This document shows positions 2,689-62,980 of a stretch of DNA of 64,000 nucleotides, one piece after another. The notes below the pieces were generated by a model. That model did no database searches. It saw only the letters and a program-made list of their open reading frames with translations, and had not been told where the DNA came from. How positions within the stretch are numbered: the stretch's first letter is position 1; the number at the start of each line of letters is the position of its first letter. Made by a program: the position numbers and the translations under genes. The DNA is taken from the NCBI GenBank assembly GCA_046160485.1, contig JBJXGV010000070.1, positions 13,154 through 77,153 on the forward strand. The letters run 5' to 3'. This stretch comes from a bacterium (lineage in GTDB: Bacteria > Orphanbacterota > Orphanbacteria > JBJXGV01).

Positions 2689-2696
2689 CGGCCGCC

Positions 2697-10995: not shown

Positions 10996-11004
10996 CGTAT
11001 CGCG

Positions 11005-13013: not shown

Positions 13014-13037
13014 GATTTCTGAAAATCCCCCTCGAGC

Positions 13038-14579: not shown

Positions 14580-14581
14580 CC

Positions 14582-17419: not shown

Positions 17420-17481
17420 GGCGGCAGTCTACAAGGCGGGCGCGCCGCCCGCAATAACGAAGGTGCGCGCGCCGGGCCGAA

Positions 17482-22180: not shown

Positions 22181-23329
22181 CTAGCGAACGCGGCGGCGGC
22201 GGTTCTCGACGAAGTCCATGAGGATGTATTCGCCGAGCTTGTTGAGCGAGGAGAAGTACGCGCGGCCGCGATTGAGCTCGGTGAGTTGCGTGACGAAATC
22301 CTGGAAGTGCGCGTCGCGCGTCACCATGAACGTCGTGATCGGAATCCGCTTGCGCCGGCAGACGACGGCTTCGTCGAGCGTGCGATTGATGATCTTCGGA
22401 TCGAGGCCGAACGTGTTGCGGTAGATCGTGCCGTCGCTCTCGCGAATCACGGTCGGCTTGCCGTCGGTGATGAGAAAGATCTGCCGGTTCGCCGCCTTCC
22501 GCCGTTCGAGAATCTTGCGCGCCATTTGCAGCGCGGCCTTCGTATTCGTGTGGTACGGCCCGACCTCGAGGTACGGGATGTCGCCGATGGCGATCTCGAA
22601 CGCGTCGTCGCCGAACGCGATCACGTCGAGCGTGTCCTTCGGGTACTTCGTCAGAATCAGTTCCGTCAGCGCAAGCGCGACACGTTTCGCCGGCGTGATC
22701 CGGTCCTCGCCGTAGAGAACCATGCTGTGCGAGATGTCGATGAGGAGCGCGGTCGCGCACGACGACGAGTGTTCGGTCTCGAAGACCTCGAGGTCTTCCT
22801 CCTTCAATCCGCCGCCGAGTAGTCCCGTGCCTTCGAGGCCCGTCAAACTCACCTGCGTTTCGTCGGCGCCGGTCGCGCTCGCGCGCCGAAACGAATTCAG
22901 GAGCGACCCCCTAAAGTCGATGTTGTTGACCTCGTCGCCGAAGCGCCACGGCCGCCGCTCCGAGAGCATCTCGCGGCCATCGCCTTCGCGCGGAACGCGG
23001 TGGTCCCCCGACTCGCCTTTGCGCAGCGCCGAAAACACGTACGAAAGCGCGCTCTTGCGAATGCCGCGCTCCCCTTTTCGCGTCAGCCGCGCGCCGTCGT
23101 CGGAGACCTCGATGTACTCCTCTTCCTCGAGACGCTTTGCAAACTTTTCGACGTCGAAGCCATCGGGGAGATAGCCCTGCTTCGCGAGATAACGCAGCAT
23201 CTCGAGCGCCTCGTCGACATCGCCGTCGCTTTGCAGCAGCAGATGATTGAACAGATCGAGGACGTTCTGGAATTCGGCGAGATCGCGCAGAAGCGCTTCG
23301 TCGAACCGGAAGTAGCGAAAGCGCGACAC
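22181..23329 (-). CDS. VWA domain protein (partner of the ChlI-like ATPase)
   Basis: MIDAS motif LLIDISHSM (DxSxS) followed by a typical von Willebrand A fold region ending FLITDGKPT; about 170-aa N-terminal domain of unknown function. Confidence 0.75.
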   Translation of the reverse strand: MSRFRYFRFDEALLRDLAEFQNVLDLFNHLLLQSDGDVDEALEMLRYLAKQGYLPDGFDVEKFAKRLEEEEYIEVSDDGARLTRKGERGIRKSALSYVFSALRKGESGDHRVPREGDGREMLSERRPWRFGDEVNNIDFRGSLLNSFRRASATGADETQVSLTGLEGTGLLGGGLKEEDLEVFETEHSSSCATALLIDISHSMVLYGEDRITPAKRVALALTELILTKYPKDTLDVIAFGDDAFEIAIGDIPYLEVGPYHTNTKAALQMARKILERRKAANRQIFLITDGKPTVIRESDGTIYRNTFGLDPKIINRTLDEAVVCRRKRIPITTFMVTRDAHFQDFVTQLTELNRGRAYFSSLNKLGEYILMDFVENRRRRVR

Positions 23330-23338
23330 GAGAGCCGG

Positions 23339-34670: not shown

Positions 34671-36041
34671 TCAAGACGAGGCGACAATTTCCTTCGTCGA
34701 GCGGCGCTTGACCGAAGTGAGGACTGGCAGTTCGAGATAGCGTTCGACTTCCTCAGGGCTCTTGAGCGAGTGGTCGAGGTTCTCGAAGAAGAACGCGAGT
34801 CCGATGCCGACGAGAAGCGAGAGGATCGGACCGAGCGAGAGGCGCACGAGGTCGCGCGGGTTCGACGCGCGGCCGTAGCCCGGCTCGCTGATCAAGAAAA
34901 TGTGGTAGTCGGCCATGCTGCGCGCGCTCGCGAGCGCCTGGCCCTTCATGTACGTCAGGTCGCCGAGCGACTTCTTGCTCGACTCGAGGTCCTTGTCGAG
35001 GTCGTTGAGGTCGCGGTCCATCATCGGGAGAATCCGGAGCCGCTCCTCGGCTTCGTTCATGCGGCGCTGCACGACATCGCGCTGCATCTCGATGCGCGAC
35101 AACTCGTCCTTCTTCGCAACGAGAATGCGCGCCCGCTCCGACTCGGCGAACTGTTGAAGCTCCGCGATCTCCTTGTCGACCTGTTCGACCAGCGGATGGC
35201 GATCGGTGTACGTCGCGAGAAGCCGCTCGCGCTCCAACTCGCGGACGGAGAGGTCTTTCAGAACCGAGCCGAGGATTCCCGCGTCGACCCGGCCCCACGA
35301 CATGAAACGCTGCTCGCCCCCAAGCTTGTCGATCTTCTCCTCGGCGCTGATCTCGGCGCGAAGCGCCACGATCTGCGTTTCGAAATTCACGACATCGTTG
35401 CGGAGCTGCGCCAGAACCGCGTACTGAATCCCGAGCTCGCCGGGGATATCCGCCACGTCGTTCTCTTGCTTGATCTCGAGCCGGCGGTTGAGGAGGTCCG
35501 TGACCTTCGCGCCCGTGCGCTGCAGCTCGGCATCGAAGAAGTCGGCGAGGTCCGGGACGGTGAAAAGCTCCTTGTGGTACTCGAGATACGCCGTAGTCAC
35601 GGCCTGATTCACCTTGAACGATTCTTCGGGATCCTGCGACGTGTACGAAATCGAGAGCATGCGCGACTTCGGTATCGGCGCCGGCTTGAGGTTCGCGCCG
35701 ATCACTTTGTATTTCGGCTCGCCCTTCGCGGCGGCGGAGTCGAGAAGCGCCTGAGCGCGCTCGATCACCGGGCGCGACTTGATCAACTCGCACTCGGAGG
35801 ATGACAACTCGTCGGCGTTAAGCGGAACGATGACGCGGTCGATAGCGCTGCCGCGCTGCACGCCCCAGAGCATGATCTTCGAGTCGGAGGTGTAGACGAT
35901 CGGCTGCAAGAGGAGCGCGGACCCGACGACGGTACTCGTCACGCCGACCATCGCCAGAATCAACGCCTTCCTCCGGAAGATGACCATGAGGAAGTCGCGA
36001 AGAGATATCTGTGCTTCTTGACGTTCTGTGTACTCGGCCAC
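34671..36041 (-). CDS. Polysaccharide chain-length determinant (Wzz/GumC-like) protein
   Basis: N-terminal TM and ISLRDFLMVIFRRKALILAMVG signature, long coiled-coil periplasmic region, C-terminal TM; no tyrosine-kinase domain. Confidence 0.7.
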   Translation of the reverse strand: MAEYTERQEAQISLRDFLMVIFRRKALILAMVGVTSTVVGSALLLQPIVYTSDSKIMLWGVQRGSAIDRVIVPLNADELSSSECELIKSRPVIERAQALLDSAAAKGEPKYKVIGANLKPAPIPKSRMLSISYTSQDPEESFKVNQAVTTAYLEYHKELFTVPDLADFFDAELQRTGAKVTDLLNRRLEIKQENDVADIPGELGIQYAVLAQLRNDVVNFETQIVALRAEISAEEKIDKLGGEQRFMSWGRVDAGILGSVLKDLSVRELERERLLATYTDRHPLVEQVDKEIAELQQFAESERARILVAKKDELSRIEMQRDVVQRRMNEAEERLRILPMMDRDLNDLDKDLESSKKSLGDLTYMKGQALASARSMADYHIFLISEPGYGRASNPRDLVRLSLGPILSLLVGIGLAFFFENLDHSLKSPEEVERYLELPVLTSVKRRSTKEIVASS

Positions 36042-36210
36042 GCGTTTACCTTCCAGACCCCGTAATTGACGAACGGCAGGTTCACATCGATGAAACTTCT
36101 CTGAATTGCTTATCGGGCGGGGCGGCGATCGAGATTAGGGAACATTTCGCCAGGAACGACGGAGGCCACTATAAGAGCGTCCCCATAGGCCGTCAAGGCG
36201 CGCGGAACAC

Positions 36211-40996: not shown

Positions 40997-42181
40997 CTAG
41001 ATGATCCCAAGCTGGCTTCCGGCGCGCTGGAACGCGTCGAGCGCGCGCTCGACATCGGCGCGCGTGTGGGCCGCCGAGAGCTGGACGCGGACGCGCGCCT
41101 CACCCTTCGGAACAACCGGGAACGAGAAGCCGATGACGTAGATCCCCTCGCCGAGCAAAACGCGCGCAAGCTCCGCGGCGAGGCGTGCGTCGCCGATCAT
41201 CACCGGTACGATCGGGTGCGATCCGGGCTTGAGTCGAAACCCGCGTTCGGCCATGCCTTCGCGGAAGAGGCGCGCGTTGTCGTTGAGGCGCTGGCGCAGA
41301 TCGTTGGAACCGGCGATGAGTTCGATCGCCTTGCGCGCGGCGGCGACGACCGCCGGTGCGAGCGAGTTCGAGAAGAGATAGGGCCGCGATCGCTGGCGGA
41401 GAAACTCGACGACCTCGCGCGCACCCGTTGTGAAACCGCCGAGCGCCCCACCCATCGCTTTGCCGAGCGTAGACGTGATGATGTCGACGCGCCCCTCGAC
41501 GCCGAGAAGCTCCGGCGTGCCGCGACCCGACGTGCCGACGAACCCGGTCGCGTGCGAATCGTCGACCATCACGATCGCGTCGAACGTCGCCGCGAGGTCG
41601 CAAATGCGGCCGAGCTTCGCGAAATCGCCGTCCATCGAGAAGACGCCATCGGTTGCGATCATGCGAAGGCGCTTACCGCGCGTCGCCGCAAGGTGCCGCT
41701 CGAGTTCGTCCATATCGCCGTGCGCGTAACGGAGCCGCTCGGCTTTGCAGAGCCGCACACCATCGATGATGCTCGCGTGGTTGAGCGCGTCGGAGATGAT
41801 CGCGTCCTCTTCCGTGAGCAGCGTTTCGAACAGGCCGCCGTTCGCGTCGAAGCACGACGAGTAGAGAATCGCGTCCTCCATCCGAAGAAAGCTCGCGACC
41901 TCGGCCTCGAGGCTCTTGTGGATGTCCTGCGTGCCGCAGATGAACCGCACGCTCGACATACCGAAGCCTCGCTCGTGCAACCCCGCCGACGCGGCCTCGA
42001 CGATCGCCGGATGACTCGAAAGCCCCAGATAGTTGTTCGCACAGAAATTGAGAACATCGCGGCCGCCGACGTGAATCGACGCGCCCTGCGGCGACGCGAT
42101 GACGCGTTCCTCCTTGTAGAGCCCGGCGTCACGAATCTCCGCCACAGCCTTCGTCATGATCTCGCGAAGATTGCCGTTCAT
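40997..42181 (-). CDS. kbl: Glycine C-acetyltransferase (2-amino-3-ketobutyrate CoA ligase)
   Basis: PLP-dependent alpha-oxoamine synthase motifs ([10 protein letters not shown]; TLGKAMGG Schiff-base Lys region); adjacent to tdh. Confidence 0.85.
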
Positions 42182-42218
42182 CGCGCTTCGACCTCCCGCC
42201 GCACGCCTTCCACGAAGG

Positions 42219-43409
42219 CTAGAACTTGATGAGGAGTTTCGGATGCTCGAGGAGCTTCTCCTCGAATCGCGCGGGGTCGAAGCTGTCGGCCTCGACGACC
42301 GTGTCCGTGGCCCCGCGAAGAATCACGTCGTAGATCTTCTGCTGAATGCCGTTCGAGCGATCCTCGAGAAGACCGCGCGTCACATACCACGTACGGAAAA
42401 CCTGTCGCCCGATCACGGAGTGCATCGTGATGCCGTTGACGATCACTCGATCGAATCCTTCGACGGTGAAGTCGCCGCTCTTCAGGCCGAAGAGGACGAC
42501 GTCGCCGCCGCGCCGGACCGATTGAATTGCGCTATTCACCGACGAGTTGTAGCCCGCCATCTCGACGGAGACGTCGACGCCCGTTCCACCAGTCGCCCCG
42601 CGCAGCGCCTTGACGACTTCGCGATCGGCCGCCCACGTCGCCGCGTGCGCCGCGGCGTCTGGGCGCGCGGTTCCCGGCGCGAAGACTTCGTCGGCGCCGA
42701 GTGTCATCGCCATTTCACGCTTCGCCGCGTCGGGCTCGATCCCGAACACGCGCGATGCCCCGAGCACGCGCGCGATCAGAATCGTGAAGAGGCCGATCGG
42801 CCCGCAGCCGAAAACCGCGACCGTCCGCCCGCGCATGTCGACCTTCGTGCACGCATGGACGGCGTTTCCGAACGGTTCCTGCACGGCCGCGACCTTCAGG
42901 CTGATCTTCTTCTCGTCCGTCGGCCAGAGGACGCGCGCCGGCAGCTTGATGTATTCGGCGAAGCACCCGTCGCGCGAGATGCCGATGATGCGGTCGTCGT
43001 CGCAAACGTGCGTCTCGCCGAGGCGGCACTGATAACACCGGCCGCAGATGATGTGCGACTCGGCGGCGACGATGTGCTTCTCGCGAAAACCGTAGTGGCT
43101 GCGCGCGTACGATCCGAGCGCGACAATCTCCCCCACCATCTCGTGGCCGATGACGCGGCACGTTTTCTTCTCCGCGCGAAGCGACTCGAAGATCATTCCC
43201 TTGAACGACTGCCGAAACCAGATCCCGCGATCGGAGCCACAAACGCCGGCGTAGATCACTTTGACGATCGTCGCGGCGGCGTCCTCCGGATCGGACTCCT
43301 GCTTGAGCACGGGCCGCGGCACCTCCATCTTGCGGAAGCCCTTCGTGGTATCCCAGTCGTCGCGGGCCTTGTCGTAGACGAGGGCGAGCATGCCGTCGCC
43401 AGAACTCAT
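42219..43409 (-). CDS. tdh: L-threonine 3-dehydrogenase-like zinc-dependent dehydrogenase
   Basis: Start at internal ATG 43407-43409 ([14 protein letters not shown]); GVCGSD zinc motif, GHEMVGEIV, Rossmann GCGPIGL. Upstream 66 codons of the listed ORF are shadow. Confidence 0.8.
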
Positions 43410-48775: not shown

Positions 48776-49427
48776 GGGCTGGGTTCGCTCGTCCGGCAGC
48801 GAGCCCTCGTCCGACGCTTGGGCCGGCGACTATCGCTTCTGCCCCGCTTGCGGCGGGCGTCTGACGATGGCGACCGCATCCGCGTCTGCGACCGCGAAAA
48901 CGACCGGGCCGTCGCGGCCGACGTGCAAAGCGTGCGGATTCGTCCACTGGAGCGAGCCCAAGTTGGCGGCGTGCGCGGTCGTTATCCTCGGCGGCCGCGT
49001 GCTTCTCGCGCGGCGCGGCATCGAGCCATCGATCGGCAAGTGGGTGATCCCGGGCGGGTTTGTCGAGCGCGGTGAGACGGTCGAGACTGCAGCCGTCCGC
49101 GAAACGCGCGAGGAGACAGGGCTCGACGTCAACCTCGTTGCGCTCCTGAACGTCTATTCGTATCACGGCGTCGGCGTCGTGCTTGTCGTGTTCGTCGCCG
49201 AGCCCACAAACGACAAACCCCCTGAGGCGCTCGACGAGACTCTCGAGGTGCGTTATTTCGCGTTCGACGAAATCCCGTGGGATGAAATCGGATTCTCGAG
49301 TTCGCACGACGCGCTGCGCGAGATCATCGAACTGGGCGTACCAGCTCGGGAACCGTTCCACTCCTCGATCTCGTCACAACCGCGTGCGAGGCGCTCTCGG
49401 CGCCTGGCGCGTTCCGGGAGCCGCTAA
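48675..49427 (+). CDS. Nudix hydrolase with N-terminal zinc ribbon (NudC-like)
   Basis: Zinc ribbon FCPACGGRL...CKACGF followed by Nudix box GGFVERGETVETAAVRETREETGL. Start uncertain: first in-frame ATG at 48675 overlaps the M20 gene by 100 nt. Confidence 0.65.
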   Translation: MTTATHRTRNFTLATSKKRSKPQPSSSRNSAKRKGWVRSSGSEPSSDAWAGDYRFCPACGGRLTMATASASATAKTTGPSRPTCKACGFVHWSEPKLAACAVVILGGRVLLARRGIEPSIGKWVIPGGFVERGETVETAAVRETREETGLDVNLVALLNVYSYHGVGVVLVVFVAEPTNDKPPEALDETLEVRYFAFDEIPWDEIGFSSSHDALREIIELGVPAREPFHSSISSQPRARRSRRLARSGSR

Positions 49428-49429
49428 CC

Positions 49430-50269
49430 GTGCTGGCTGATCTGCCCAATCTGAAAATCGTTCCGACGGCGAGCATTCACTTGCACGAGGAGTTCGACGA
49501 ACAGCGCGCCGTCGGACTCGGCGCCAAGATGCGAAAGGCCGGCATCCTGACGAATCCGCCGATCGTCGCGGCGATTCCGCGTAAACGCGAGTATGTCGTG
49601 CTCGACGGCGCGAACCGCGTGACGGCGGCGGCGCGAATCCGCCTGCCGACCTTGCTCGTTCAACTCGTCGACTACGACGACGCGGAGATCGTGCTCTCGA
49701 ATTGGGCGCACGTCGTGAGGGGATTTCCCGCGGCGAAGTTTTTCAGCGAGGCGCAGGCGCTCTACGGCGCGCGAATCGACGCCGCACCCTTCGCCGACGC
49801 GCGCCGCGAACTGGCGAATCGCCGCATTTCGTGCTTCTTCCATCACAAAGATCGCGGCACGTTCGTGCTGCGCCGCGTCACGACGCGTGGCTCGGATGCC
49901 ACCGAGGTGAAAGCCCTTCGCGACATCACGGGAATCTACAAGGACCGCGCGTCGATCGTCAGAATCCCGCTCACGGCGGAAAACGCGAAAGACCTGGCCG
50001 TGTACGACGGATTCGTGGTCGCGTTTCCGACGTTCTCGAAGGCGGACATCGTGCGCTGCGCGGTGCGTCCGGACGACCGCCTCCCGACCGGCATTTCGCG
50101 CCACACGATTCCGCTGCGCGCGCTGCGTGTGAATCTCCCGCTGTCGGTGCTCCGCTCGTCGAAGCCGCTCACCGAGAAGAATCGTATCCTCGATGCGTTC
50201 ATCGCGCGCAAGGCGCGCACGAGTTCGATCCGCCTCTACAACGAGCCGACGTTTATCTACGACGATTGA
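49430..50269 (+). CDS. ParB/Srx-fold protein of unknown function (DGxxR motif)
   Basis: N-terminus KIVPTASIHLHEEFDEQR...ILTNPPIVAA...YVVLDGANRVTAA matches the ParB N-domain/sulfiredoxin pattern; starts 3 nt after the Nudix stop. No DNA-binding HTH recognised. Confidence 0.5.
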   Translation: MLADLPNLKIVPTASIHLHEEFDEQRAVGLGAKMRKAGILTNPPIVAAIPRKREYVVLDGANRVTAAARIRLPTLLVQLVDYDDAEIVLSNWAHVVRGFPAAKFFSEAQALYGARIDAAPFADARRELANRRISCFFHHKDRGTFVLRRVTTRGSDATEVKALRDITGIYKDRASIVRIPLTAENAKDLAVYDGFVVAFPTFSKADIVRCAVRPDDRLPTGISRHTIPLRALRVNLPLSVLRSSKPLTEKNRILDAFIARKARTSSIRLYNEPTFIYDD

Positions 50270-51396: not shown

Positions 51397-51975
51397 ATGG
51401 CCATCGAGCCGTGGAAGACGATTCACCAGAGCGAGCGCGAGTCGTACCGCATCTTTTCGGTGCGGCGGGAGACGGCGGTCTCGCAGACGAGCGGAGTCTC
51501 GCACGAGTTTATCGTGATCGAGGCGCCGACGTGGGTGAACGTGATTCCGATCACGCCGGAAGACGACGTGGTGTTCGTGCGCCAGCACCGTCAGGGGACG
51601 CGAAGCGTGACGCTCGAGATTCCGGGCGGCATGGCCCATCGCGGCGAAACGCCGGAGGAGGCGGGCGCGCGCGAGTTGCTCGAGGAAACCGGCTTCCGCG
51701 GAGACCGCGTCGTGAGCATCGGTAGCGTCTACCCGAACCCGGCGATCCAGAACAACATCTGCCACACCGTGCTGGTCGAGGGCGCGCGCCGCGTCGCGGA
51801 TCCGACGCCCGATCCGTCGGAAGAACTCGAGACGCAACTCATCCCGCTTGCGGATATTCCGCGCCGCATTCGCGACGGCGAGATCACGCACGCGCTCGTC
51901 GTCGCCGCGTTTCATCACCTCGCGATCTTGCGGCCGCCGAATGCTGCGGCCGCGACCGAAACCGGCCGCGCGTGA
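51397..51975 (+). CDS. Nudix hydrolase (ADP-ribose pyrophosphatase-like)
   Basis: Nudix box GGMAHRGETPEEAGARELLEETGF; 192 aa. Confidence 0.75.
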   Translation: MAIEPWKTIHQSERESYRIFSVRRETAVSQTSGVSHEFIVIEAPTWVNVIPITPEDDVVFVRQHRQGTRSVTLEIPGGMAHRGETPEEAGARELLEETGFRGDRVVSIGSVYPNPAIQNNICHTVLVEGARRVADPTPDPSEELETQLIPLADIPRRIRDGEITHALVVAAFHHLAILRPPNAAAATETGRA

Positions 51976-53192
51976 TCCGCGGCGGCAACGGCGCAAGAGG
52001 AGATTCGCTCGCGATCGAGAACTCGATCGTGCGCTCCGCGCGCCATCTCCGCCGCGTCTTCGCGATCCTCGCCACGTTCGCCGCCGCCGTCGGATGCGCC
52101 GACACGCCGCGCGGCGCGGCGAGCGCGAACACGACGCGACCGGGCTCCGCGGCAGCCACATCGGGCGCCGCCGTGGAGTCCGCGCCTCCGGCGCCAGCGC
52201 GCGCGCCTGCGCCCGTAGCGCCGCGCGCACCGGGCTCCGCACTCGAGCCCGAACCCGGTTGGCCGCGCTGGCTCGAAGCGCGAGACCGTCACGCGGACCA
52301 AACCTCCGGGCTCGCATTCGTCGGCCGCGACGCCTCCGGAGCGCGCGTCTTCCTCGTCGCGGACGATGTCGGCGATCTCTGGCGGCTTCGCGTCTTCGGC
52401 TCCGCAGACTCCTTCGCACTCAGCCCGATCGCGTTCGAAGGCGCCGCGGCGGAAACGCTCGCGCGATTCCCAAAGAGCGACCTCGAAGAGATTTCGTTCT
52501 GCCCGATCACGCACCGCGTGATCCTGTCGATCGAGGGGAACGGCCCGAAGGAAGACCCGGCGGACACGACGTTTCGCGAGTGGCTCGGAGTCTTCGAGCT
52601 CGCCATGGCGCCCGACGCGCTCACCGCGACGCGCGTGACGTCGATCGCCCGGCTCGATCTGCCGGAGTGGGCGGCGGCCACGCGCCTTGCGACCAAGAAC
52701 GTGGGCTTCGAGGCCGCTTCGCTCTGCGGCGACACTCTCCTACTCGGCCTCGAAGGCGTCTCGAGCGGCGAGGGGCTCTTCGCCGACTCGACGCTCTTCG
52801 AGGTTTACGACATCGCACGCGGAACACGGCGCGAGATCAGCACGCACGGCCTCTCGATCATGACGGCGACCGGGTTTGCACGGGCGGCCGACGGGCGCTA
52901 CTTCGGAATCGATCGAAATAGTTACCGACTCTTCGCCTTCCGCATCGAACACGGCACGCTGTCGCATCTGCAATCGATTCCGCTTTCGATGCCCGGCGTG
53001 GGAGGCGTCGCGTACCTGATCCCCTCCGCCGAGGCGGTCGCGGTCGACGACGAGGGCTTTGTCTGGGTCGTCGTCGATCCGTGGAAGTACGAGCCGATCA
53101 CGCGCGAGGGACTTTCACCGCGCGACATCTCGAACTACAAGCAGAAGGTGCCGCTCATCTACAAATATCGCGATCCGTTCACATCCGGATAG
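51972..53192 (+). CDS. Hypothetical lipoprotein
   Basis: Signal with lipobox (FAILATFAAAVGCAD), Ala/Pro-rich linker, then a non-shadow C-terminal domain (KVPLIYKYRDPF). No catalytic motif recognised. Confidence 0.5.
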   Translation: MIRGGNGARGDSLAIENSIVRSARHLRRVFAILATFAAAVGCADTPRGAASANTTRPGSAAATSGAAVESAPPAPARAPAPVAPRAPGSALEPEPGWPRWLEARDRHADQTSGLAFVGRDASGARVFLVADDVGDLWRLRVFGSADSFALSPIAFEGAAAETLARFPKSDLEEISFCPITHRVILSIEGNGPKEDPADTTFREWLGVFELAMAPDALTATRVTSIARLDLPEWAAATRLATKNVGFEAASLCGDTLLLGLEGVSSGEGLFADSTLFEVYDIARGTRREISTHGLSIMTATGFARAADGRYFGIDRNSYRLFAFRIEHGTLSHLQSIPLSMPGVGGVAYLIPSAEAVAVDDEGFVWVVVDPWKYEPITREGLSPRDISNYKQKVPLIYKYRDPFTSG

Positions 53193-54264: not shown

Positions 54265-55308
54265 CTAGACGCGCGCGATCTCGGCGTAGATCGCGGAAAG
54301 ACGCTCGCCGAGAGCTGCGCGCCCGGAATCTTCGCCGGCAATCCCGCCGACTCGCTTCGGCGACTTCATCGCGTAGAGAAGCGCGGCTCCGAGGCCGATC
54401 GCATCGGTCGCGCCGACGTAGTGCGCCGCGTCCGCGAACAGCGCGCGCGCGTACTCGCTCTCGACCGCGACGAGGCGAGTGCGCGACGCAAGAGCCAGAA
54501 GCGCGTACGGCTCGATCGCGCCGGGGTCGGGCACCGCGAAGAACGCCCCGCGCGCGCGATCCATCTGCTCGGCGAGAAACGCAACCGGAGGATGGCCGCC
54601 GAACGTGACGCGCGGCACGAGTCCGCGCGCCGAAACCGCCTTGAGGGCATCCTTCCCGATCGGGTGTCCCATGATGAGCAGGTGGAGCCGCGCGTTGGAG
54701 GCGATCGCGGTATCGAGGCCCGCCAGGCACGCGTCGAGGTTTCCCTCCGCGAGCGGCGCGAAGACGAGGAGAAAATCGCGATCCGCGGGAAGCATGATCG
54801 TCTCCCCCGGCGCCGGGGCGAGGTCGTCGTGATCGAGCGATCCGCGGAGGTGAACGATGCGTCGCGTGTCGCCGCCGAGTGTGGCGAGCTGCGCGGCAAC
54901 CGATGCGGCCGGCGTAACGATACGATCCGCAAGGGAGAGCACGTTCGCATCATGACGTCCGCGCGCAAACGGCTCGATCACTTCGACGACAAGCGGCGCG
55001 CCGATATCCTTCGCGACCGCGTGGCCGGTGCGAATCGCATCCCACCCGTGCGCGTGAATCACGGAAGGCCGGGCCTTCGACGCCGCGGACATGACGCGAT
55101 CCGCCAGACTCGCGCCGGAAAACACGGCGAGCGGCCCACGGCCGCGCGCAGGGCCGGCGTCGGCGCCGCCGAACTCGGCGAGCCCAGGCGCGCCGAAAAC
55201 AAGCGACGGATGCCCAGCGTCGCGCAGCGCGAGCAGTTCTTCGCGGATTCGATGTTCGGCGAGCCCGCCGGATGCGATCGTGCCCGATGTGATGTGAAAC
55301 GAAATCAT
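54265..55308 (-). CDS. Putative GT-B fold glycosyltransferase-like protein
   Basis: Weak resemblance to GT4 N- and C-terminal regions (VIHAHGWDAI...; C-terminal E-x7-E-like region). Divergent. Confidence 0.45.
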   Translation of the reverse strand: MISFHITSGTIASGGLAEHRIREELLALRDAGHPSLVFGAPGLAEFGGADAGPARGRGPLAVFSGASLADRVMSAASKARPSVIHAHGWDAIRTGHAVAKDIGAPLVVEVIEPFARGRHDANVLSLADRIVTPAASVAAQLATLGGDTRRIVHLRGSLDHDDLAPAPGETIMLPADRDFLLVFAPLAEGNLDACLAGLDTAIASNARLHLLIMGHPIGKDALKAVSARGLVPRVTFGGHPPVAFLAEQMDRARGAFFAVPDPGAIEPYALLALASRTRLVAVESEYARALFADAAHYVGATDAIGLGAALLYAMKSPKRVGGIAGEDSGRAALGERLSAIYAEIARV

Positions 55309-55386
55309 AGGAGGGTGTCCGTGGCCGCTGCACTCGTTGGCGTCACGAGCGAAGTTCGCGCAAAGTAGCAGACGCCTCCGTGCGCG

Positions 55387-55899
55387 TCAAGGAAGCGGGC
55401 GCTGAGCGAGCTGGCGCGCCGCGAGCGCGATCGCGGCAGCGACCACGACGATGACGATCGCGAAGACGCCAAACCGGCCGCGAGCGGACGGCGAAGCGTG
55501 CGGCGGCTGCATCGGAGGCGCGGACGAAGGCGAAGGCGCCTGATGGCTCGCGCCCGGGGCGGCGTAGGGACGCGGCGCCTCACCCTTCAATCCGCCCGCC
55601 CAGAATTGGAAAAGCGCACCGCCGAATGCGACCTGGTCGCCGTCGTTGAGCAACCCGCCCGGGAAGTCTCGGCGGTTGACGACGACTCGCGCCCCCGGCA
55701 TCGGCGCAAGACGGAACGTGGCCCCCTCGCGCCGCAGCTCCGCGTGGCGCTCGAGAATATCGGGAGCATCGATCGCAATGTCCGGAGCCGCGCCGGCGCT
55801 CGGTCGCCCCACCACGAGCGAATCGCCTTTCAAGACGTACTCGCGGCGCCCCTCGAGACCGCGGAGGACGATGAGCCGCATCGCTTCTTCATGAGCCAT
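55387..55899 (-). CDS. FHA domain protein with C-terminal transmembrane anchor
   Basis: ATG at 55897-55899 preceded by GGAG. FHA core (LKGDSLVVGRPSAGAAPDIAIDAPDILERHAELRREGATFRL...NGT-like) and C-terminal hydrophobic helix FGVFAIVIVVVAAAIALAA. Confidence 0.65.
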   Translation of the reverse strand: MAHEEAMRLIVLRGLEGRREYVLKGDSLVVGRPSAGAAPDIAIDAPDILERHAELRREGATFRLAPMPGARVVVNRRDFPGGLLNDGDQVAFGGALFQFWAGGLKGEAPRPYAAPGASHQAPSPSSAPPMQPPHASPSARGRFGVFAIVIVVVAAAIALAARQLAQRPLP

Positions 55900-56026
55900 G
55901 TTTTCTCCGTGACGAGTCTGGCGGGGAGCGTGTTCGCCGCTTAGGTATACCGGAGCGCACGCGCCATTGCAATTGTCCGCTCGCGCCGATAAGGTTGCGC
56001 TCGTGCCGCGGCCCATCGCCACATTC

Positions 56027-57172
56027 ATGAGAACTGCCTTCGTCGCCGCGATTCTTCTCGCCGCGTTTGCCGGTTGTTCCGACCAAGACCCGATCGACAC
56101 GCCGCCCCCCGACACGAAATCGCTCTGGACCGTACGCGCGAACGGCGGCGGAGACTTCACCGACTTGCAAGAGGGGATCAACGCAGCGGGCGACGGCGAC
56201 ACCGTGATCGTGGGCCCGGGCCGCTACGCGACGATTGGACAACGCATCGTCGGCGGCATCCCTCGCGTCTACGCACTCCACATCGGCGCGTCCACGCGTT
56301 CGAACGCGAAGTCGCTGACGATTCGCTCGGAAGCGGGGCCCGACTCCACGATCATCGGCGACGAAACGATCGTCGACTTCGCCGTCGTACTCCAGAACAC
56401 GCCCGGCGTCACGATCGAAGGATTCGAGATCCGCGGCGGCGGTAACCGCGGCGTGTTTCTATACCGGGCCGACGCGACGCTCACGCGCAATCGCATCACG
56501 GGCTCGACGTTCGCCGTCCGCGCCGAGGAGAGCGAGATCACGCTGCGCTCGAATCACATCATCGAGAACCAGACCGGCCTCGAGGCGAACGCATCGACGA
56601 TTACGACGATCGAAAATCTCTTCGATGAAAACACGAGCGACGGCATCGTGCTGATCTCCGCGACGACCGCGACGCTGCGAGGCGACACGATTCGCGCAAG
56701 CGGCGCGACGGGGATCGTGCTCGCGCTCTCGGGCGCGACGGTCGAGCGCGCGCTCATCTCGCATTCTGCTGGACCCGCGTGCGACCTGACCGACTCGCGC
56801 CTGTCGATTCGCGAAAGCACTCTCGTCTCCAACGGCCGCCCGGCGATCGGCGCGTTTCGCGACGCTATCAGCGTGACGGGAGTTTCGTCGGTGCTCAACG
56901 CGGAGCGCGTCATCATCGCGTATTCCGGCGGGTGCGCGGTGCGCAATCGCCAAGGCGCCGTAACGCTCTCGTGCTGCGATTTGTGGGAGAACCTCGGCGG
57001 TGACGGAGGGGCCGATTGCTCGGCCCCTGGAACCAACGGCACCTTCGCGATCAATCCATCGTTTTGTAATCTCGACACGCGCGACTACTCGCTCCGCGCC
57101 GATTCCCCGTGCGCGTCCGAAAACTCCGGAGCGTGCGGCCTCGTCGGCGCGTTCCCCGTTCGCTGCGAATAG
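56027..57172 (+). CDS. Right-handed parallel beta-helix repeat lipoprotein
   Basis: Start at internal Met with lipobox (MRTAFVAAILLAAFAGCSD); repeated beta-helix motifs (NRGVFLYRADATLTRNRITGS; ITLRSNHIIENQTG). Confidence 0.65.
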   Translation: MRTAFVAAILLAAFAGCSDQDPIDTPPPDTKSLWTVRANGGGDFTDLQEGINAAGDGDTVIVGPGRYATIGQRIVGGIPRVYALHIGASTRSNAKSLTIRSEAGPDSTIIGDETIVDFAVVLQNTPGVTIEGFEIRGGGNRGVFLYRADATLTRNRITGSTFAVRAEESEITLRSNHIIENQTGLEANASTITTIENLFDENTSDGIVLISATTATLRGDTIRASGATGIVLALSGATVERALISHSAGPACDLTDSRLSIRESTLVSNGRPAIGAFRDAISVTGVSSVLNAERVIIAYSGGCAVRNRQGAVTLSCCDLWENLGGDGGADCSAPGTNGTFAINPSFCNLDTRDYSLRADSPCASENSGACGLVGAFPVRCE

Positions 57173-57202
57173 CCGGCACTCGCAAACCGACCGCGGCGTT
57201 CT

Positions 57203-57727
57203 CTACGAAACGAGCTTCTTAAGCGCCGCGATCACCGCGTCGTAGTTCGGCTGGTCCGGCATGTCCAGTACGTACTCGACGTGCCGAATCACGCCGCCTG
57301 CGTCGACTACGAAGACCGCGCGCGAGTCGACTCCCAACTCCTTGACGTACGCTCCGTACGCGCGCCCGAAGTTGGCGTCGACGTGGTCGTGGAGCGTCGT
57401 CACGGTCGTAAGACCCGCATCGGCGCACCAGCGCTTCGCGGCGTACGGCAAATCACGGCTGAACGTGTAGAACGCGACCCGGTCTTCGAACTTCACCGCC
57501 TCGTCATTGAAGCGCTTCGTCTGCGCGGAGCAGACGCCGGTATCGAGCGACGGCACGACGGAGAAGAGCCGCACGCGGTTCCCGGTCGCTGCGAGATTTA
57601 CGGGCGAAAAAGTCTGGTCGAGGACGGTGAAGTCCGGTGCGCGATCGCCGGCCTTCAGTTCCGGCCCGACGAGAGTGAACTGTTTGCCACGCAGCGTAAA
57701 AGCATTGGCGCGTTCGATGGCTGACAT
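57203..57727 (-). CDS. tpx: Thiol peroxidase
   Basis: ATG at 57725-57727 preceded by GGAGG RBS. MSAIERANAFTLRGKQFTLVG N-terminus, peroxidatic Cys context (PSLDTGVCSAQT), resolving Cys (AAKRWCAD). Confidence 0.85.
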   Translation of the reverse strand: MSAIERANAFTLRGKQFTLVGPELKAGDRAPDFTVLDQTFSPVNLAATGNRVRLFSVVPSLDTGVCSAQTKRFNDEAVKFEDRVAFYTFSRDLPYAAKRWCADAGLTTVTTLHDHVDANFGRAYGAYVKELGVDSRAVFVVDAGGVIRHVEYVLDMPDQPNYDAVIAALKKLVS

Positions 57728-57761
57728 GAAGACTGCCTCCATACTGGGAGCGTTGCCCCGC

Positions 57762-57787
57762 GTGTGATTTGTCGTGATGTGATCGTG
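57762..57787 (-). promoter_or_regulatory. Triple GTGAT (ATCAC on the coding strand) direct repeat 35-60 nt upstream of tpx; candidate operator
   Basis: GTGAT at 57764, 57774 and 57779 within tgtgatttgtcgtgatgtgatcgtgg, in the tpx/hypothetical divergent intergenic region. No known box matched with confidence. Confidence 0.25.
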
Positions 57788-58024
57788 GAAGAACGTAGAG
57801 TTTGCGAACCCGAGCCCCGCCAATCTAGCAGAGCGGGCGAAAAAGAAAAGGGCGCCGCAAGAGCCGCGCCGGTCGCCGCGTCCTTCGCTCGACGAGCACC
57901 CGGCCCCGCGTCGCGTATGCGCCCTGGACCGCGCCCGCACGGCACGTTATCCTCTACGCTCGACACGGAATGCGCGCCGTCGTACCGCCGCACGCGCCGC
58001 GAAAGCTGACCGAAGAGGAGTGCG

Positions 58025-58441
58025 ATGCCCTGCGAAGAGATCAGCGCCGTCGTGACCGTCGTTCTCGACAAGGACGAGCGCCTGCGCTACTACACGTTCG
58101 AAAAAATCACGTGCGGGAAGATCATCCCCCTCTCGCAAACGCTACAGGCCCACTGTAAGGGGATGACGCTCGACGCGCTCGCGTCGCTTCGACTCGAGGA
58201 ACTCGTGCGTGCCTTCGACGTTCGCGACGAAGACTCGTTCTTCGTGCTCGACAAGGAACTCGACGCGTTGCAGAGCGCGGTCGCGAACTACCGCGGCTCC
58301 GACGCCGGGCTCGACTTCGAGCGATACAAGATCGAGAGCATCGAGTACGGCGACGACTCGATCCGCATTCAACAAGTCATTCTCGAGCCAAAGCCCGACG
58401 CGGCAGTTCCGTCGTGCCGGGTCGTCTTCAAGTCGCGGTGA
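58025..58441 (+). CDS. Hypothetical protein (138 aa)
   Basis: Preceded by GAGGAG RBS; Lys/Ile/Glu/Tyr-containing composition (MPCEEISAVVTVVLDKDERLRYYTFEKITCGKIIPL) unlike Arg-rich shadow ORFs. No family recognised. Confidence 0.5.
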   Translation: MPCEEISAVVTVVLDKDERLRYYTFEKITCGKIIPLSQTLQAHCKGMTLDALASLRLEELVRAFDVRDEDSFFVLDKELDALQSAVANYRGSDAGLDFERYKIESIEYGDDSIRIQQVILEPKPDAAVPSCRVVFKSR

Positions 58442-58466
58442 CGCGCGCGCGCCACGACGGCCGGCG

Positions 58467-60083
58467 ATGACGCGGTTCTTTCTCGTTGGAGCCGAGCGCG
58501 ACGTCCCGATGCGTTTCGCACTGCGCGAAGGCCCGCAGACGATCGGCCGCGCCTCCGATTGCGACATTACCCTCGCGAGTTCCTCGGTGTCGAAACGCCA
58601 CGCCGAGATCGACGTCTCCGGCATGGATGTCGTCGTTCGCGACCTCGGCAGCAAGAACGGAACGTTCGTCAACAAGACGCCGGTCAACAAGACCACCCCG
58701 CTCGTGCACGGCGACTCGCTCGCGCTCGGCAGCCTCCAGCTTCAGCTCGTCGACAACCAGGATCGCCCCTCCACGCGGCTCACACCCGAGGACAACGTCC
58801 GCACGCCCTACAGCACGTCGTTCGTCGAGGCGTGGACGGCGATGGAGTCGCGCCAACCGAAGCGCGCGCTCGAGGCCGTGCACGAGGCGGGGCAAACGCT
58901 CGCGCAGACGCTGACGCTCGACGGCCTCTACGAAAGCGTGCTCGCGCTCTTGGCGCGCCATTTCACGGCCGATCGCATTCTCATCCTCACGCACGGCGTC
59001 GCCGGGAGCGAACCGGTCGTCGTCGCGTCGCATCTTCAGGGGCGATCCGCGACGGACCCGCTTCACCTCAGCCAAACCCTGCTTCAAGAAGTGCTCGTCA
59101 AGGGCCGCTCCCTTCTGACCGAAGATGCAGCAGCGGACGATCGATTCGCGGGCCATCAAAGCATCATCATGTCGGGCATTCACTCCGCGATGGCCGCGCC
59201 GCTTCTCGACAAGGGCGTCATCCTCGGAATGATCTACCTCGACTCGCTGCGGCGCGCGATCGTCTACTCGCACGACGAGCTGCGCCTCCTGACGCTGCTT
59301 GCCAACATGACCGCGGTGAAAGCGACGACGTGCCGTCTCGACGAGGTCGAGAAGGAGCGCGCACGGCTACGCGGCGAACTCGATCTCGCGTCGCGGATCC
59401 AGCGGCGCCTCGTGCCCGACGAAATTCCGCACATTCCCGGCTACACCGTTTTCGCGGAGATGACGCCGTGCCACGAAATCGGCGGCGACCTTTTCGACAT
59501 ACGGCCGCGCTCGGACGGACGCGTTTGGCTGGCGGTCGGCGATGTCACGGGGAAAGGCGTCGCCGCGGCGCTTCTCATGTCGAACGTGATGGCCGCGCTC
59601 CGCTTTCTCGAGGACGACGTCGACGATGTGCTCGTCCTCGTCGACCGGCTGCAGGCGCGGCTCCTGCAGAACCTCGACATCGGGCAGTTCCTCACGCTAT
59701 TCGTTGGGCTGCTCGACCCGGCGACGGGGCGGCTCACGTACGTCAACGCGGGGCACGCACCGCCGCTCTGGATCGGCGTCGATTCTTGCGAGTCGCTGGC
59801 CTCGACGGCGCCGCCCGTCGCGCTCGTGCCGTCGATCGTGCCCGAGGTCGCAGAGATCGTTCTCGCGCCGAACGAGACGATCGTGATCTTCAGCGACGGA
59901 CTCAGCGAGGCCTCCGAAACGGACGAGCAATACGACGAAAAGCGGCTGGGCGATTTCGTCGGCGCACACCGGGGCGAGAGTGCCGAAGTTCTCGGGCGAG
60001 GACTGCTCGCCGACGTCGAGGCGTTTCGCGGTGCGTCGCCCGTTGCCGACGACCTGACGATTCTCATCGTTCAGCGACTGTAG
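58467..60083 (+). CDS. FHA-GAF-PP2C (SpoIIE-like) serine phosphatase
   Basis: Start at internal ATG 58467 (MTRFFLVGAE). N-terminal FHA (QTIGRASDCDITL...SKRHAEI...RDLGSKNGTFVN), central GAF-like region, C-terminal PPM/SpoIIE motifs (GGDLFDI; AVGDVTGKGVAAALLM; IFSDGLSEA). Confidence 0.8.
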   Translation: MTRFFLVGAERDVPMRFALREGPQTIGRASDCDITLASSSVSKRHAEIDVSGMDVVVRDLGSKNGTFVNKTPVNKTTPLVHGDSLALGSLQLQLVDNQDRPSTRLTPEDNVRTPYSTSFVEAWTAMESRQPKRALEAVHEAGQTLAQTLTLDGLYESVLALLARHFTADRILILTHGVAGSEPVVVASHLQGRSATDPLHLSQTLLQEVLVKGRSLLTEDAAADDRFAGHQSIIMSGIHSAMAAPLLDKGVILGMIYLDSLRRAIVYSHDELRLLTLLANMTAVKATTCRLDEVEKERARLRGELDLASRIQRRLVPDEIPHIPGYTVFAEMTPCHEIGGDLFDIRPRSDGRVWLAVGDVTGKGVAAALLMSNVMAALRFLEDDVDDVLVLVDRLQARLLQNLDIGQFLTLFVGLLDPATGRLTYVNAGHAPPLWIGVDSCESLASTAPPVALVPSIVPEVAEIVLAPNETIVIFSDGLSEASETDEQYDEKRLGDFVGAHRGESAEVLGRGLLADVEAFRGASPVADDLTILIVQRL

Positions 60084-60142
60084 ATCGCGCCGCGCCGAAA
60101 CTCGTCCGCCGTGCTGAATCCTCCGCGGGCTATAATCGCGGC

Positions 60143-62980
60143 GTGACACTGCAACGTGACCATCACGAAGCACACCGTGTCCTAACCCGGCTTCGCACAC
60201 GCAGACACGCCGCGGGCCTCGCCGCGATTTCCGTGTCGGCATCGCTTCTTCTCTCATTCGCCGGCCCCGCGTTAGCGCACGAAGAACCAGGCGCGCAAGT
60301 TCACGCGCTCTCGGAAGCGATCGCAAGCAGCCCCGGGGACGCCGGGCTCCTCCTCCGCCGCGCCGCGCTCTACCTCCTCGATCATGAGTGGGACGCGGCC
60401 GGAATCGATCTCGATCGCGCGGAGCGGATCGCTCCTGGGCTCGACGGGGTCGCGGTTGCGCGCGCCCAGCTTCACCTCGGCACCGGCGACCCCGCGCGGG
60501 CGGTTGCGAGCGCGAATCAGCACCTTGCGCGTCACCCCGGGAGTGCCGAAGCACTGCGGCTGCGCGCCCGTGCGCACCTGGCGCTCGGCGACGCGAACGC
60601 GGCGGTGCGCGATCTGGGCGCCGCGATCGACGCGTCGCCTCGGCCGGCGCCCGAGATCTACATCGAGCGCGCGAACGCGATCCTCACCGCAGATGCGAAC
60701 GACGCGCACGACGCTCTTCGAACGCTCGACGAAGGCGAGGAACGTCTCGGTGTCAGCGCTCCGTTGTCACTTCGTGCGATCGAAATCGAACTCGCGCGCG
60801 GCGACACGGCGGCGGCGCGCCGGCGCGCCGATCGGCTCGACGAGGCACCGTCGCGCGCCGTTTCCGCGGGATCGCGAATGGACGCGTCGAGCGTGTCCGT
60901 CGCCGCCCCCGGGGCGCAATCCTCCGCCGCCGACCCGGTCTTCGTGCCCGCGGGCGCCGTGTGGCGCTACAACGCGACCGGCACCGACCTCGGCATCGCG
61001 TGGCGCGATCCTGCGTACGATGACGCCGCGTTGCCCGCGGGCGCCGCGCCGCTCGGATACGGCGAGCCCTACATCGTTACGACCATCCCCTCCGGCTCGC
61101 CGGCGCGCTATCCGACGAGTTACTTCCGCACCGAATTCACGCTCCTCAACGCGACCATCGACGTCGGCCGGTTGACGCTGCGCGCGAACTACGACGACGG
61201 CTTCGTCGCGTACCTCAACGGCCGCGAGATTCTCCGGCGCATGATGCCGGATGGGGAGATCACCTACGCGACGTTCGCGGCGGGCCAACACGAGGGCGGC
61301 GCTCTCGAGACTTACGACCTCTCGCAGTTCGTCGGATACCTCTCCGCCGGAACGAACGTCCTCGCGGTCGAAGCGCACCAGGTCAACGCGACGAGCAGCG
61401 ATCTGGTGATGGACATCGAACTCTCGGGTTCGACGGAATCGGCGGTCGTCACGCGCGGCCCGTATCTGCAAGTCGGCACCCCGACGAGCGTCGCGGTTCG
61501 CTGGCGCACGGATGCGGCGGTCGTCGGACGCGTGCGATACGGCGCAAGCCCGAACGCACTCGATGCTTTCGTCGAGGAGGCGGGCGCGACGACGGAGCAC
61601 ATCGTCACGCTCGCCAACCTCTCCCCCGACACCAAGGTGTACTACGCCGTCGGAACGGGAAATGAAATCCACGCGGGCGGCGACGCCGATCACTTCGTCG
61701 TGACGCCGCCCGCGCCCGGCGCCGCGCGGAGCGCGCGCATCTGGGTCATCGGCGACTCCGGGCGCGGCAACGCCGGTGCGCGCGCCGTGCGCGATGCGTA
61801 TTTCGATTTCGCGGCGGATCGCGACACGGATCTATGGCTCATGCTCGGCGACAACGCCTACAACAGCGGGACCGATGCCGAGTACCAAGCGGGCGTCTTC
61901 GACGTCTACGGCGATATTCTGCGCAACTCGGTGCTCTGGCCGACGCGCGGCAATCACGACGGCGTCTACCCCGGCCCGAACAACGACTACTACGACATCT
62001 TTTCGATGCCGACAGGCGCCGAAGCCGGCGGCGTGCCATCCGGAAGCGAGGCGTACTACTCGTTCGACTTCGGACGCGTCCACTTCGTGTGCCTCGACTC
62101 CGAGGGCTCCGACCGTTCTCCGAGCGGGGCGATGCTCACGTGGCTCGATGCGGACCTCGCCGCGAACACGCAAGACTGGACGGTCGCGTTCTGGCATCAC
62201 CCGCCCTACACGAAGGGCTCTCACGATTCCGACAACCCGTTCGACAGCGCCGGACGAATGAAAGACATGCGCGAGAACGCACTGCCGATTCTCGAGGAGC
62301 ACGGAGTCGATCTCGTCCTGACCGGGCACAGCCATTCCTACGAGCGATCGTTCCTCATCGACGGACACTACGGGACATCGGACACGTTCGCGGACTCGAT
62401 GACGATCGACGGCGGCGACGGAAGCATCCTCGGCGATGGCGCGTACACGAAGCCGACGCTCGGACCGGGTGCGCACGAGGGCTCGATCTTCGCGGTCGCG
62501 GGAAGTTCAGCGACAATCAGCGGCGGCTCGCTCGATCATCCGGTCATGATTACGTCGCTCAACATTCTCGGATCGATGGTCGTCGACGTGAACGGCAATC
62601 AACTCGACGCGATCTTCCTCAGCGACACAGGCGCGATCCTCGACGAGTTCACGATCGTCAAAGACGCGATGACCGGAGTCGCCGCGCCGGTGCGCGGCGC
62701 GGGTGCGCTCGCGATCCGATCGATCGAGCCCAACCCGGCGCGCGACACCGCGCGCATTCACTACACGATTCCCTCGACGGGGCCGGTGACGGTCACGGTG
62801 CACGATACGTCGGGGCGGCTCGTCGCCACGGTCGAGGATGGCGTGCGCGGTGCGGGCGCGCATGTGGCGACCTGGGATGGCCGCGGCGCCGATGGCCGGC
62901 AAGCGGCTGCCGGCGTCTACGTCGGCCGCGTCCGGTTCCTCGGCGCGGAGCGCGCGCACAAACTCGTCATCATGCGATGA
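60143..62980 (+). CDS. Secreted TPR / purple-acid-phosphatase-like metallophosphoesterase with C-terminal FlgD-like/sorting-type tail
   Basis: C-terminal part of a 1473-aa shadow-extended ORF; GTG start proposed at 60143. Signal-like AAISVSASLLLSFAGPALA; metallophosphatase motifs (WVIGDSG; LMLGDNAYN; TRGNHD; LTGHSHSYER); tail ends GVYVGRVRF. Confidence 0.7.
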   Translation: MTLQRDHHEAHRVLTRLRTRRHAAGLAAISVSASLLLSFAGPALAHEEPGAQVHALSEAIASSPGDAGLLLRRAALYLLDHEWDAAGIDLDRAERIAPGLDGVAVARAQLHLGTGDPARAVASANQHLARHPGSAEALRLRARAHLALGDANAAVRDLGAAIDASPRPAPEIYIERANAILTADANDAHDALRTLDEGEERLGVSAPLSLRAIEIELARGDTAAARRRADRLDEAPSRAVSAGSRMDASSVSVAAPGAQSSAADPVFVPAGAVWRYNATGTDLGIAWRDPAYDDAALPAGAAPLGYGEPYIVTTIPSGSPARYPTSYFRTEFTLLNATIDVGRLTLRANYDDGFVAYLNGREILRRMMPDGEITYATFAAGQHEGGALETYDLSQFVGYLSAGTNVLAVEAHQVNATSSDLVMDIELSGSTESAVVTRGPYLQVGTPTSVAVRWRTDAAVVGRVRYGASPNALDAFVEEAGATTEHIVTLANLSPDTKVYYAVGTGNEIHAGGDADHFVVTPPAPGAARSARIWVIGDSGRGNAGARAVRDAYFDFAADRDTDLWLMLGDNAYNSGTDAEYQAGVFDVYGDILRNSVLWPTRGNHDGVYPGPNNDYYDIFSMPTGAEAGGVPSGSEAYYSFDFGRVHFVCLDSEGSDRSPSGAMLTWLDADLAANTQDWTVAFWHHPPYTKGSHDSDNPFDSAGRMKDMRENALPILEEHGVDLVLTGHSHSYERSFLIDGHYGTSDTFADSMTIDGGDGSILGDGAYTKPTLGPGAHEGSIFAVAGSSATISGGSLDHPVMITSLNILGSMVVDVNGNQLDAIFLSDTGAILDEFTIVKDAMTGVAAPVRGAGALAIRSIEPNPARDTARIHYTIPSTGPVTVTVHDTSGRLVATVEDGVRGAGAHVATWDGRGADGRQAAAGVYVGRVRFLGAERAHKLVIMR

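Follow-up and report, generated by a model that had tools for sequence, protein, structure and literature searches.

The window analyzed here is a 64,000-nucleotide stretch (G+C content, ~66%) of contig JBJXGV010000070.1 (GenBank assembly GCA_046160485.1, positions 13,154 to 77,153) from a bacterium of the lineage Orphanbacterota. Its block at positions 55387 to 60083 contains a gene for an FHA-GAF-SpoIIE/PP2C phosphatase of 538 aa, a 138-aa open reading frame (ORF) directly before it, and a gene for a 170-aa membrane protein with an FHA-like domain. According to our analysis, to which we assign a probability of about 0.7, these are three separate units joined by lineage-specific synteny, namely, an orphan FHA-GAF-PPM phosphatase whose kinase and substrate would be encoded elsewhere, a recently juxtaposed IscU-like gene, and an unrelated pair formed by the FHA-like gene and a GT4-like glycosyltransferase gene. 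An earlier note had described the three ORFs, all of which were recovered in our ORF check at the positions it gave, as a single Ser/Thr-phosphorylation signaling cluster. That description does not stand, since the phosphatase and the 138-aa ORF are not conserved together, the residues that bind phosphothreonine (pThr) are missing from the membrane protein, and the FHA-like gene pairs with the glycosyltransferase gene.

The 138-aa ORF adjoins the phosphatase gene only in close relatives

The phosphatase gene (58467 to 60083, plus strand) begins 26 nt downstream of the stop codon of the 138-aa ORF (58025 to 58441, plus strand), with 25 bases in between. No terminator-like site was found between the two, and they are probably cotranscribed in this lineage, while a promoter and terminator scan of positions 55200 to 60400 gave counts no higher than those in shuffled sequence and is uninformative on an operon either way. 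When we compared the window with homologous loci, labeled L001 to L051, the adjacent pair was present only in the window, in L010/L011 (GCA_031388265.1), and in L012/L013. In L010/L011, the IscU-like protein encoded by the 138-aa ORF and the phosphatase are 93% and 99% identical to those of the window and the gap is 26 nt; in L012/L013, the respective identities are 75% and 71% and the gap is 10 nt. Positions 514 to 2119 of L010 correspond to window positions 58025 to 60083, with the phosphatase 99% identical over 388 aa and adjoining the 93% identical IscU-like protein.

More distant members of the clade keep the upstream gene order, which runs from a phytase-like gene through the GT4, FHA-like, beta-helix, and Tpx genes to the IscU-like gene. 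Downstream of the IscU-like ORF, at a distance of 9 to 60 nt, an aspartate-aminotransferase-like gene was found in L003 to L005, L006 to L008, L050, and L051 (L003, 8481 to 9725; L006, 8439 to 9725; L050, 5439 to 6722; L051, 5461 to 6732). The same aminotransferase-like gene occurs in L001 after an inserted convergent 686-aa ORF, and in L009 the IscU-like ORF is followed by a small YgaP-like gene.

Starting from the phosphatase, the profile of the 138-aa family gave no match within 6 to 7 kb, as far as the contigs extend, of the orthologues with 39 to 48% identity (L014 to L016, L048, and L049). Starting from the small protein, the phosphatase profile detected no phosphatase in the 31 loci of a sister subfamily (L017 to L047; Nitrospinota, Omnitrophota, and Latescibacterota), of which 23, mostly from Nitrospinota, carry nadC directly upstream of the IscU-like gene (around position 6000). 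A pattern search with the close-family alignment of the 138-aa protein yielded no relatives in genome contigs and two loci in metagenome contigs. Small genes in the vicinity of phosphatase orthologues, encoding 142 aa in L016 and 114 aa in L049, were considered as IscU-like members and rejected by the family profile; the 114-aa gene looks PAS-like from its sequence. The class I/II aminotransferase of the window (40997 to 42322) was likewise considered, as a displaced orthologue of the relatives' aminotransferase, and was rejected for lack of significant similarity.

The 138-aa protein had been put forward as a partner or substrate of the phosphatase, with co-conservation of the two genes as the check. 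In our comparison, the adjacency is confined to loci with identities of at least 71% in the phosphatase and at least 75% in the small protein, and it is absent from L001 to L009, L014 to L016, and L017 to L051. The role of substrate is no better served, since the 138-aa product is an IscU/NifU_N-like three-Cys protein and not a recognizable phospho-substrate. Because the pair is kept only in close relatives, we read the adjacency as a recent juxtaposition and not as a conserved partnership.

A putative IscU/NifU_N branch with a rearranged ligand set

The 138-aa ORF is a real gene. A GAGGAG Shine-Dalgarno sequence stands 6 nt upstream of its ATG, in agreement with the ribosome-binding site previously attributed to it, and its G+C contents at third and second codon positions (GC3, 0.83; GC2, 0.38) are as in the surrounding genes. 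The N-terminal Met-Pro-Cys is kept in 56 to 60 of 60 diverse family members, which fixes the start codon. Sixteen close homologues share 54 to 100% identity, and a family profile search against 1.84 billion representatives returned 241 clusters at an E value of ≤1e-3, those listed being mostly stand-alone proteins of ~120 to 150 aa. The named members that we checked are all annotated as "hypothetical protein."

A first scan of the 138-aa protein gave no Pfam match at an E value of ≤0.01. In a looser scan, NifU_N (PF01592) matched the window protein with 16.3 bits against a threshold of 22 (E = 0.011), and the other single-sequence matches were also weak (TIGR02000, E = 0.02; PDB entry 4eb5, E = 0.7). 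The family profile matches human and bacterial ISCU/IscU chains with E values of 3.4e-7 to 1e-5, 26 of the 60 family members match Pfam NifU_N at an E value of ≤0.1 (best, 7.4e-7), and the top fold matches of the 138-aa protein are IscU and SufE. On this profile homology and on the fold matches, we predict a divergent, unannotated three-Cys protein of the IscU/NifU_N type, with the same fold. In the profile alignment, Cys3-x-Asp5 falls on the CGD motif of IscU and Cys30 on its GCG motif. Both Cys3 and Cys30 are present in 60 of 60 family members, Asp or Glu occupies position 5 in 58, and Cys131, which is located in the C-terminal tail, is conserved in 56. Together, Cys3-x-Asp5, Cys30, and Cys131 are the probable ligands of an Fe-S cluster or a metal ion.

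The core of the family is homologous to that of IscU, with a first Cys, an Asp at +2 (CxD), and a second Cys 27 residues on, as in CGD...GCG, and equivalents of IscU C37, D39, and C63 are present. However, the 138-aa family opens at the first ligand Cys, within Met-Pro-Cys, and has no counterpart of the ~35 N-terminal residues of IscU. Phe73 of the 138-aa protein stands where IscU has its third Cys (LPPVKLHCS, C106), the LPPVK chaperone motif is absent from the family, its region aligning to unrelated residues, and a C-terminal beta-hairpin and tail are added, the latter harboring the near-invariant Cys131 away from the C106 position. No cysteine desulfurase (IscS/NifS/SufS; Aminotran_5) was found beside members of the family at any inspected locus, and the neighbors are a class I/II aminotransferase, nadC, or the phosphatase. 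The gene may belong to an undescribed, N-terminally truncated branch of IscU/NifU_N in which the third ligand Cys has moved to the C-terminal tail, and whose members would serve as dedicated Fe-S or metal donors or sensors, not as general scaffolds, and in this lineage the window protein may have come to supply the phosphatase with a redox or iron signal; we offer this proposal tentatively and consider it possible, although doubtful.

The recurrent neighbors of the IscU-like family, an aspartate-aminotransferase-like gene in the clade of the window and nadC in the sister subfamily, hint at a link with aspartate and de novo NAD synthesis, which is speculative. NadA of de novo NAD synthesis carries a labile 4Fe-4S cluster.

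The main rival to a recent juxtaposition casts the IscU-like protein as a regulatory partner of the phosphatase that is specific to this lineage, e.g., an Fe-S or redox sensor that has controlled the FHA-GAF-PP2C enzyme since the operon formed. The common strand, the gaps of 26 nt in the window and 10 nt in L012 with no terminator-like site between the genes, and the retention of the pair in three sampled relatives speak for such a role, and the three conserved Cys residues together with the Asp would suit a labile cluster. However, the pairing is missing in five to six other lineages of the small-protein clade, in the 31 sister-subfamily loci, and in the five phosphatase-orthologue lineages. 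Moreover, between the window and L010 the IscU-like protein is 93% identical but the phosphatase 99%, and none of the domains in this phosphatase is known to bind IscU-like proteins. We therefore deem a regulatory partnership improbable, if the best surviving of the alternatives.

Several points nonetheless weigh against the reading of three separate units. The shared strand and the spacing of 10 to 26 nt, kept in two lineages at ~71 to 75% identity, fit an operon, and operons often encode interacting proteins. The inspection covered 6 to 10 kb per relative, and the phosphatase could lie farther off in L001, L003, L006, L050, and L051. The case for metal or cluster binding by the 138-aa protein comes entirely from residue conservation and remote homology, and the predicted local distance difference test (pLDDT) score is below 50 at Cys3 and Cys131 in the first AlphaFold model and still so at Cys3 in a model built from a deeper alignment. 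Finally, we infer both the substrate and the kinase of the phosphatase.

The FHA-like membrane protein pairs with a glycosyltransferase gene

The 170-aa membrane protein (55387 to 55899, minus strand) matches Pfam FHA with an E value of 2.1e-6 and 28.5 bits against a cut-off of 20.7, and it also matches Yop-YscD_cpl (PF16697) below threshold. Its C-terminal hydrophobic segment FGVFAIVIVVVAAAIALAA comprises residues 143 to 161 (19 residues) with a mean Kyte-Doolittle value of 2.95, and the protein is predicted to be tail anchored. We aligned four orthologues of the membrane protein with the canonical FHA domain of the phosphatase. Among the four, the GR motif has R/R/S/H at its Arg position, the SxxH motif has L/E/L/L in place of its Ser, and the S-x-N loop has become a Pro-rich P-x-P-x-A. 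The full-length phosphatase profile, with its FHA region included, did not match the 170-aa protein. Because the pThr-binding residues are missing, the FHA assignment holds at the fold level only. Of the earlier description of an FHA protein with a transmembrane anchor, the Pfam match above the cut-off and the one hydrophobic C-terminal segment are retained, whereas the pThr-binding Arg, Ser, and Asn are lost.

At every compared locus, the FHA-like gene lies directly upstream of a GT4-like gene on the same strand, whether or not a phosphatase is nearby. The window pair extends from 54265 to 55899 on the minus strand with a spacing of 78 nt, the glycosyltransferase gene itself being located at 54265 to 55308 (Pfam Glyco_transf_4, E = 1.5e-5, under its cut-off). 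The corresponding pairs are found at 163 to 1774 in L001 (50 nt), at 251 to 1869 in L003 (4-nt overlap), and at 1610 to 3218 in L012 (74 nt). As in the cytoplasmic domain of YscD/SctD, a membrane-anchored protein is devoid of the canonical pThr-binding residues; unlike YscD/SctD, the 170-aa protein has a single C-terminal transmembrane anchor, no secretion-system genes around it, and a GT4-like partner. It is best regarded, as far as the sequence indicates, as a degenerate, YscD-like FHA fold that would work with the glycosyltransferase, and not as a pThr reader of the phosphatase pathway.

These data bear on the view that a single Ser/Thr-phosphorylation module unites the phosphatase, the 138-aa protein, and the membrane protein, the last with its FHA-like domain as a second pThr reader. 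Two FHA-type Pfam matches do occur within 4.7 kb, and the synteny of the whole block is shared by the window and L012. However, not only are the pThr-binding Arg, Ser, and Asn absent from the membrane protein, but the FHA-like protein stays by the glycosyltransferase in lineages without an adjacent phosphatase, the 138-aa ORF and the phosphatase lack co-conservation, the block is broken up by unrelated genes on both strands, and kinase, STAS, and RsbW-type genes were not found among the scanned genes of the window. A single module is therefore very unlikely.

The search for a kinase covered the whole window. The catalytic-loop motif of Hanks kinases was absent from all six frames of the 64 kb, and Pfam scans of the ~48 main predicted genes, which were chosen by a crude gene caller that omitted a few short or low-scoring ORFs, returned no Pkinase, STAS, or HATPase domains. 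The earlier statement that no Ser/Thr kinase is present in the window was thus borne out.

A sensor phosphatase predicted to be active

The 538-aa protein encoded at 58467 to 60083 is indeed the FHA-GAF-SpoIIE/PP2C phosphatase that had been recognized from its sequence, with three Pfam domains well above threshold. The FHA domain, a canonical pThr reader by its residues, corresponds to residues 25 to 88 (58539 to 58730; PF00498, 75.1 bits, E = 5.9e-21), and the GAF domain corresponds to residues 151 to 284 (58917 to 59318; PF01590, 52 bits against a cut-off of 22.4, E = 1.4e-13; GAF_2, E = 1.2e-9). A linker of 64 residues, likely helical, follows (residues 285 to 348; 59319 to 59510), and the SpoIIE/PPM catalytic domain occupies residues 349 to 537 (59511 to 60077; PF07228, 139.2 bits against a cut-off of 25, E = 2.1e-40), covering positions 1 to 191 of the 192 in the profile.

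Residue conservation was assessed in an alignment of 30 phosphatase homologues with 33 to 71% identity to the window protein. The pThr-binding G27, R28, S42, H45, and N64 are invariant, as are the metal-binding D341 (GGD), D359 (GDVTGKG), D477 (SDG), and D528/D529 (DDLT), and the catalytic Asp residues of a PP2C enzyme are thereby accounted for. In the linker, R290, E295, E304, A308, I311, L316, and P317 are nearly invariant. Since all the pThr-binding residues of the FHA domain and the four metal-binding Asp motifs are invariant, the phosphatase, a soluble PPM (PP2C) enzyme of the SpoIIE/RsbU branch, is predicted to be catalytically competent. The possibility that it is instead a noncatalytic adaptor, a pseudo-phosphatase like Escherichia coli RssB, which matches the domain and belongs to the pseudo-phosphatases of the SpoIIE/PPM family discussed in PMC12143880, is hardly credible given that the match spans the whole SpoIIE profile, 1 to 191 of 192, and that all metal-binding Asp motifs are invariant.

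Among proteins of known structure or function, the FHA domain aligns to those of GarA and OdhI with E values of ~1e-11. The first three catalytic motifs align with the phosphatase domain of Mycobacterium tuberculosis Rv1364c (PAS-PPM-...; 3ke6, E = 1e-12, residues 319 to 483 covered), which is the best solved relative, and alignments were also obtained to the phosphatase domains of RssB and SpoIIE. In Rv1364c and RssB, it is the linker and the beginning of the PPM domain that align with the linker region of the window protein. In a large protein collection, 738 homologues were found at an E value of ≤1e-20, and more than 100 of the 120 listed ones have the same length (~535 to 570 aa) and the same Pfam set of FHA, GAF, and SpoIIE. 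Those with names are called "SpoIIE family protein phosphatase" or "RsbU" and come from "Candidatus Eisenbacteria," Latescibacteria, GN15, Bryobacteraceae (Acidobacteria), and others. The FHA-GAF-SpoIIE architecture is therefore common and already annotated. Our literature search found genome surveys only and no functional study of this architecture; one such survey lists FHA-SpoIIE and GAF-SpoIIE fusions in Sorangium and nothing further (PMC2887360).

With the general-stress phosphatases of the RsbU, RsbP, and RsbZ type, the window protein shares both a layout of an N-terminal sensor, a linker, and a C-terminal PPM domain and the GGD, GDVxGKG, SDG, and DD(L)T metal-binding motifs. Compared with this type, of which Clostridioides difficile RsbZ (tandem GAF-PPM) is an example, it adds an N-terminal FHA domain, i.e., a pThr input besides the GAF domain. 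Linkers couple GAF, PAS, REC, or RsbU-N domains to PPM dimerization and activity in RsbU, RsbP, RsbZ, and RssB (PMC12143880). By homology, the FHA domain of the window phosphatase would dock on a phosphothreonine that a Hanks-type kinase, encoded elsewhere, has generated, the GAF domain would bind a small ligand, and both inputs would pass via the linker to a dimeric PPM domain, as in these four proteins. The PPM domain may then dephosphorylate a phosphoserine- or phosphothreonine-bearing protein encoded elsewhere, most likely a STAS-type anti-sigma antagonist or an FHA-docked protein.

Unlike RsbU-type systems, the window phosphatase has no adjacent genes for STAS or RsbW-type partners, and no STAS or HATPase (RsbV/RsbW-type) partners were seen beside its orthologues at the inspected loci either. 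The surroundings of these orthologues vary among lineages: L014 and L015 have Pyr_redox/radical SAM genes, L016 and L048 have QueG together with a Na/H exchanger or PorV, and L049 has a small PAS-like gene and an RND pump. Since no conserved partner gene is visible across the orthologue neighborhoods (L014 to L016, L048, L049, and L012), we describe the window phosphatase as an "orphan" sensor phosphatase.

Interleaved genes and other features of the window

The genes interleaved with the three units were identified as those already named in the earlier note. A beta-helix (NosD-like) lipoprotein is encoded at 55967 to 57172 on the plus strand (Pfam Beta_helix, E = 4.9e-25; AFAGC lipobox), with orthologues in L001, L003, and L012, and the thiol peroxidase Tpx is encoded at 57203 to 57730 on the minus strand (NF001808, E = 3e-48, above cut-off), with orthologues in L001, L003, L006, L012, and L051. 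Both are part of the conserved synteny, and the lipoprotein stands outside the signaling unit. Downstream of the phosphatase, positions 60143 to 62980 on the plus strand encode an exported TPR and purple-acid-phosphatase-like metallophosphoesterase with an FlgD_ig tail of the type IX secretion system (T9SS) type (Metallophos, E = 4.8e-16; Pur_ac_phosph_N, E = 7e-9; FlgD_ig, E = 8e-10; TIGR04183 above cut-off), and outside the lineages of the window and L012 this gene was not found beside the phosphatase. The GTG at 60143 is most likely its start, and the 945-aa product it gives is as long as the L012 orthologue. A perfect TATAAT hexamer is located at 60130 to 60136, 7 nt upstream of this probable GTG, and the gene may have its own promoter with a very short leader.

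FlgD_ig/T9SS-type tails occur on large exported proteins of the window, namely, an LTD plus FlgD_ig protein (8632 to 10995) and the purple-acid-phosphatase-like protein, and 1,000-aa FlgD_ig proteins occur in relatives (L001, L003, L006, and L050), which is suggestive of a type IX-like route of secretion in the lineage. Positions 10996 to 15281 encode a polyphosphate/nucleotide-related group that consists of a CHAD plus Ppx-GppA_III/HD protein, a histidine phosphatase, and a 747-aa Ppx/GppA protein, and genes for nucleoside salvage (adenosine deaminase, deoxynucleoside kinase, and thymidine kinase) lie upstream at 271 to 3672. On the minus strand, at 22181 to 24811, the gene for an AAA_5 (MoxR-like) ATPase adjoins that for a VWA-domain protein. 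The 406-aa ORF at 51972 to 53192 has no Pfam match, although precomputed Phytase-like (PF13449) matches exist for the orthologues in L001 and L003. Five further ORFs of 327 to 609 aa with gene-like codon bias (3748 to 5577, 16214 to 17428, 17482 to 19071, 34671 to 36134, and 49286 to 50269) gave no Pfam match at an E value of ≤0.001, three of them also at ≤0.01.

Implications

The phosphatase is one more member of an FHA-GAF-SpoIIE architecture that is large, annotated, and experimentally untouched. Gene adjacency alone would have implied a false partner or substrate for it, and the comparative context shows the pairing to be recent. The sole mildly novel element is the IscU-like family, with its ~240 clusters and its rearranged ligand set. 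If these proteins bind a cluster or a metal, Fe-S scaffold-like proteins would prove more varied than is known so far in a set of poorly studied phyla (Nitrospinota, Omnitrophota, Latescibacterota, Sumerlaeia, and the lineage studied here).

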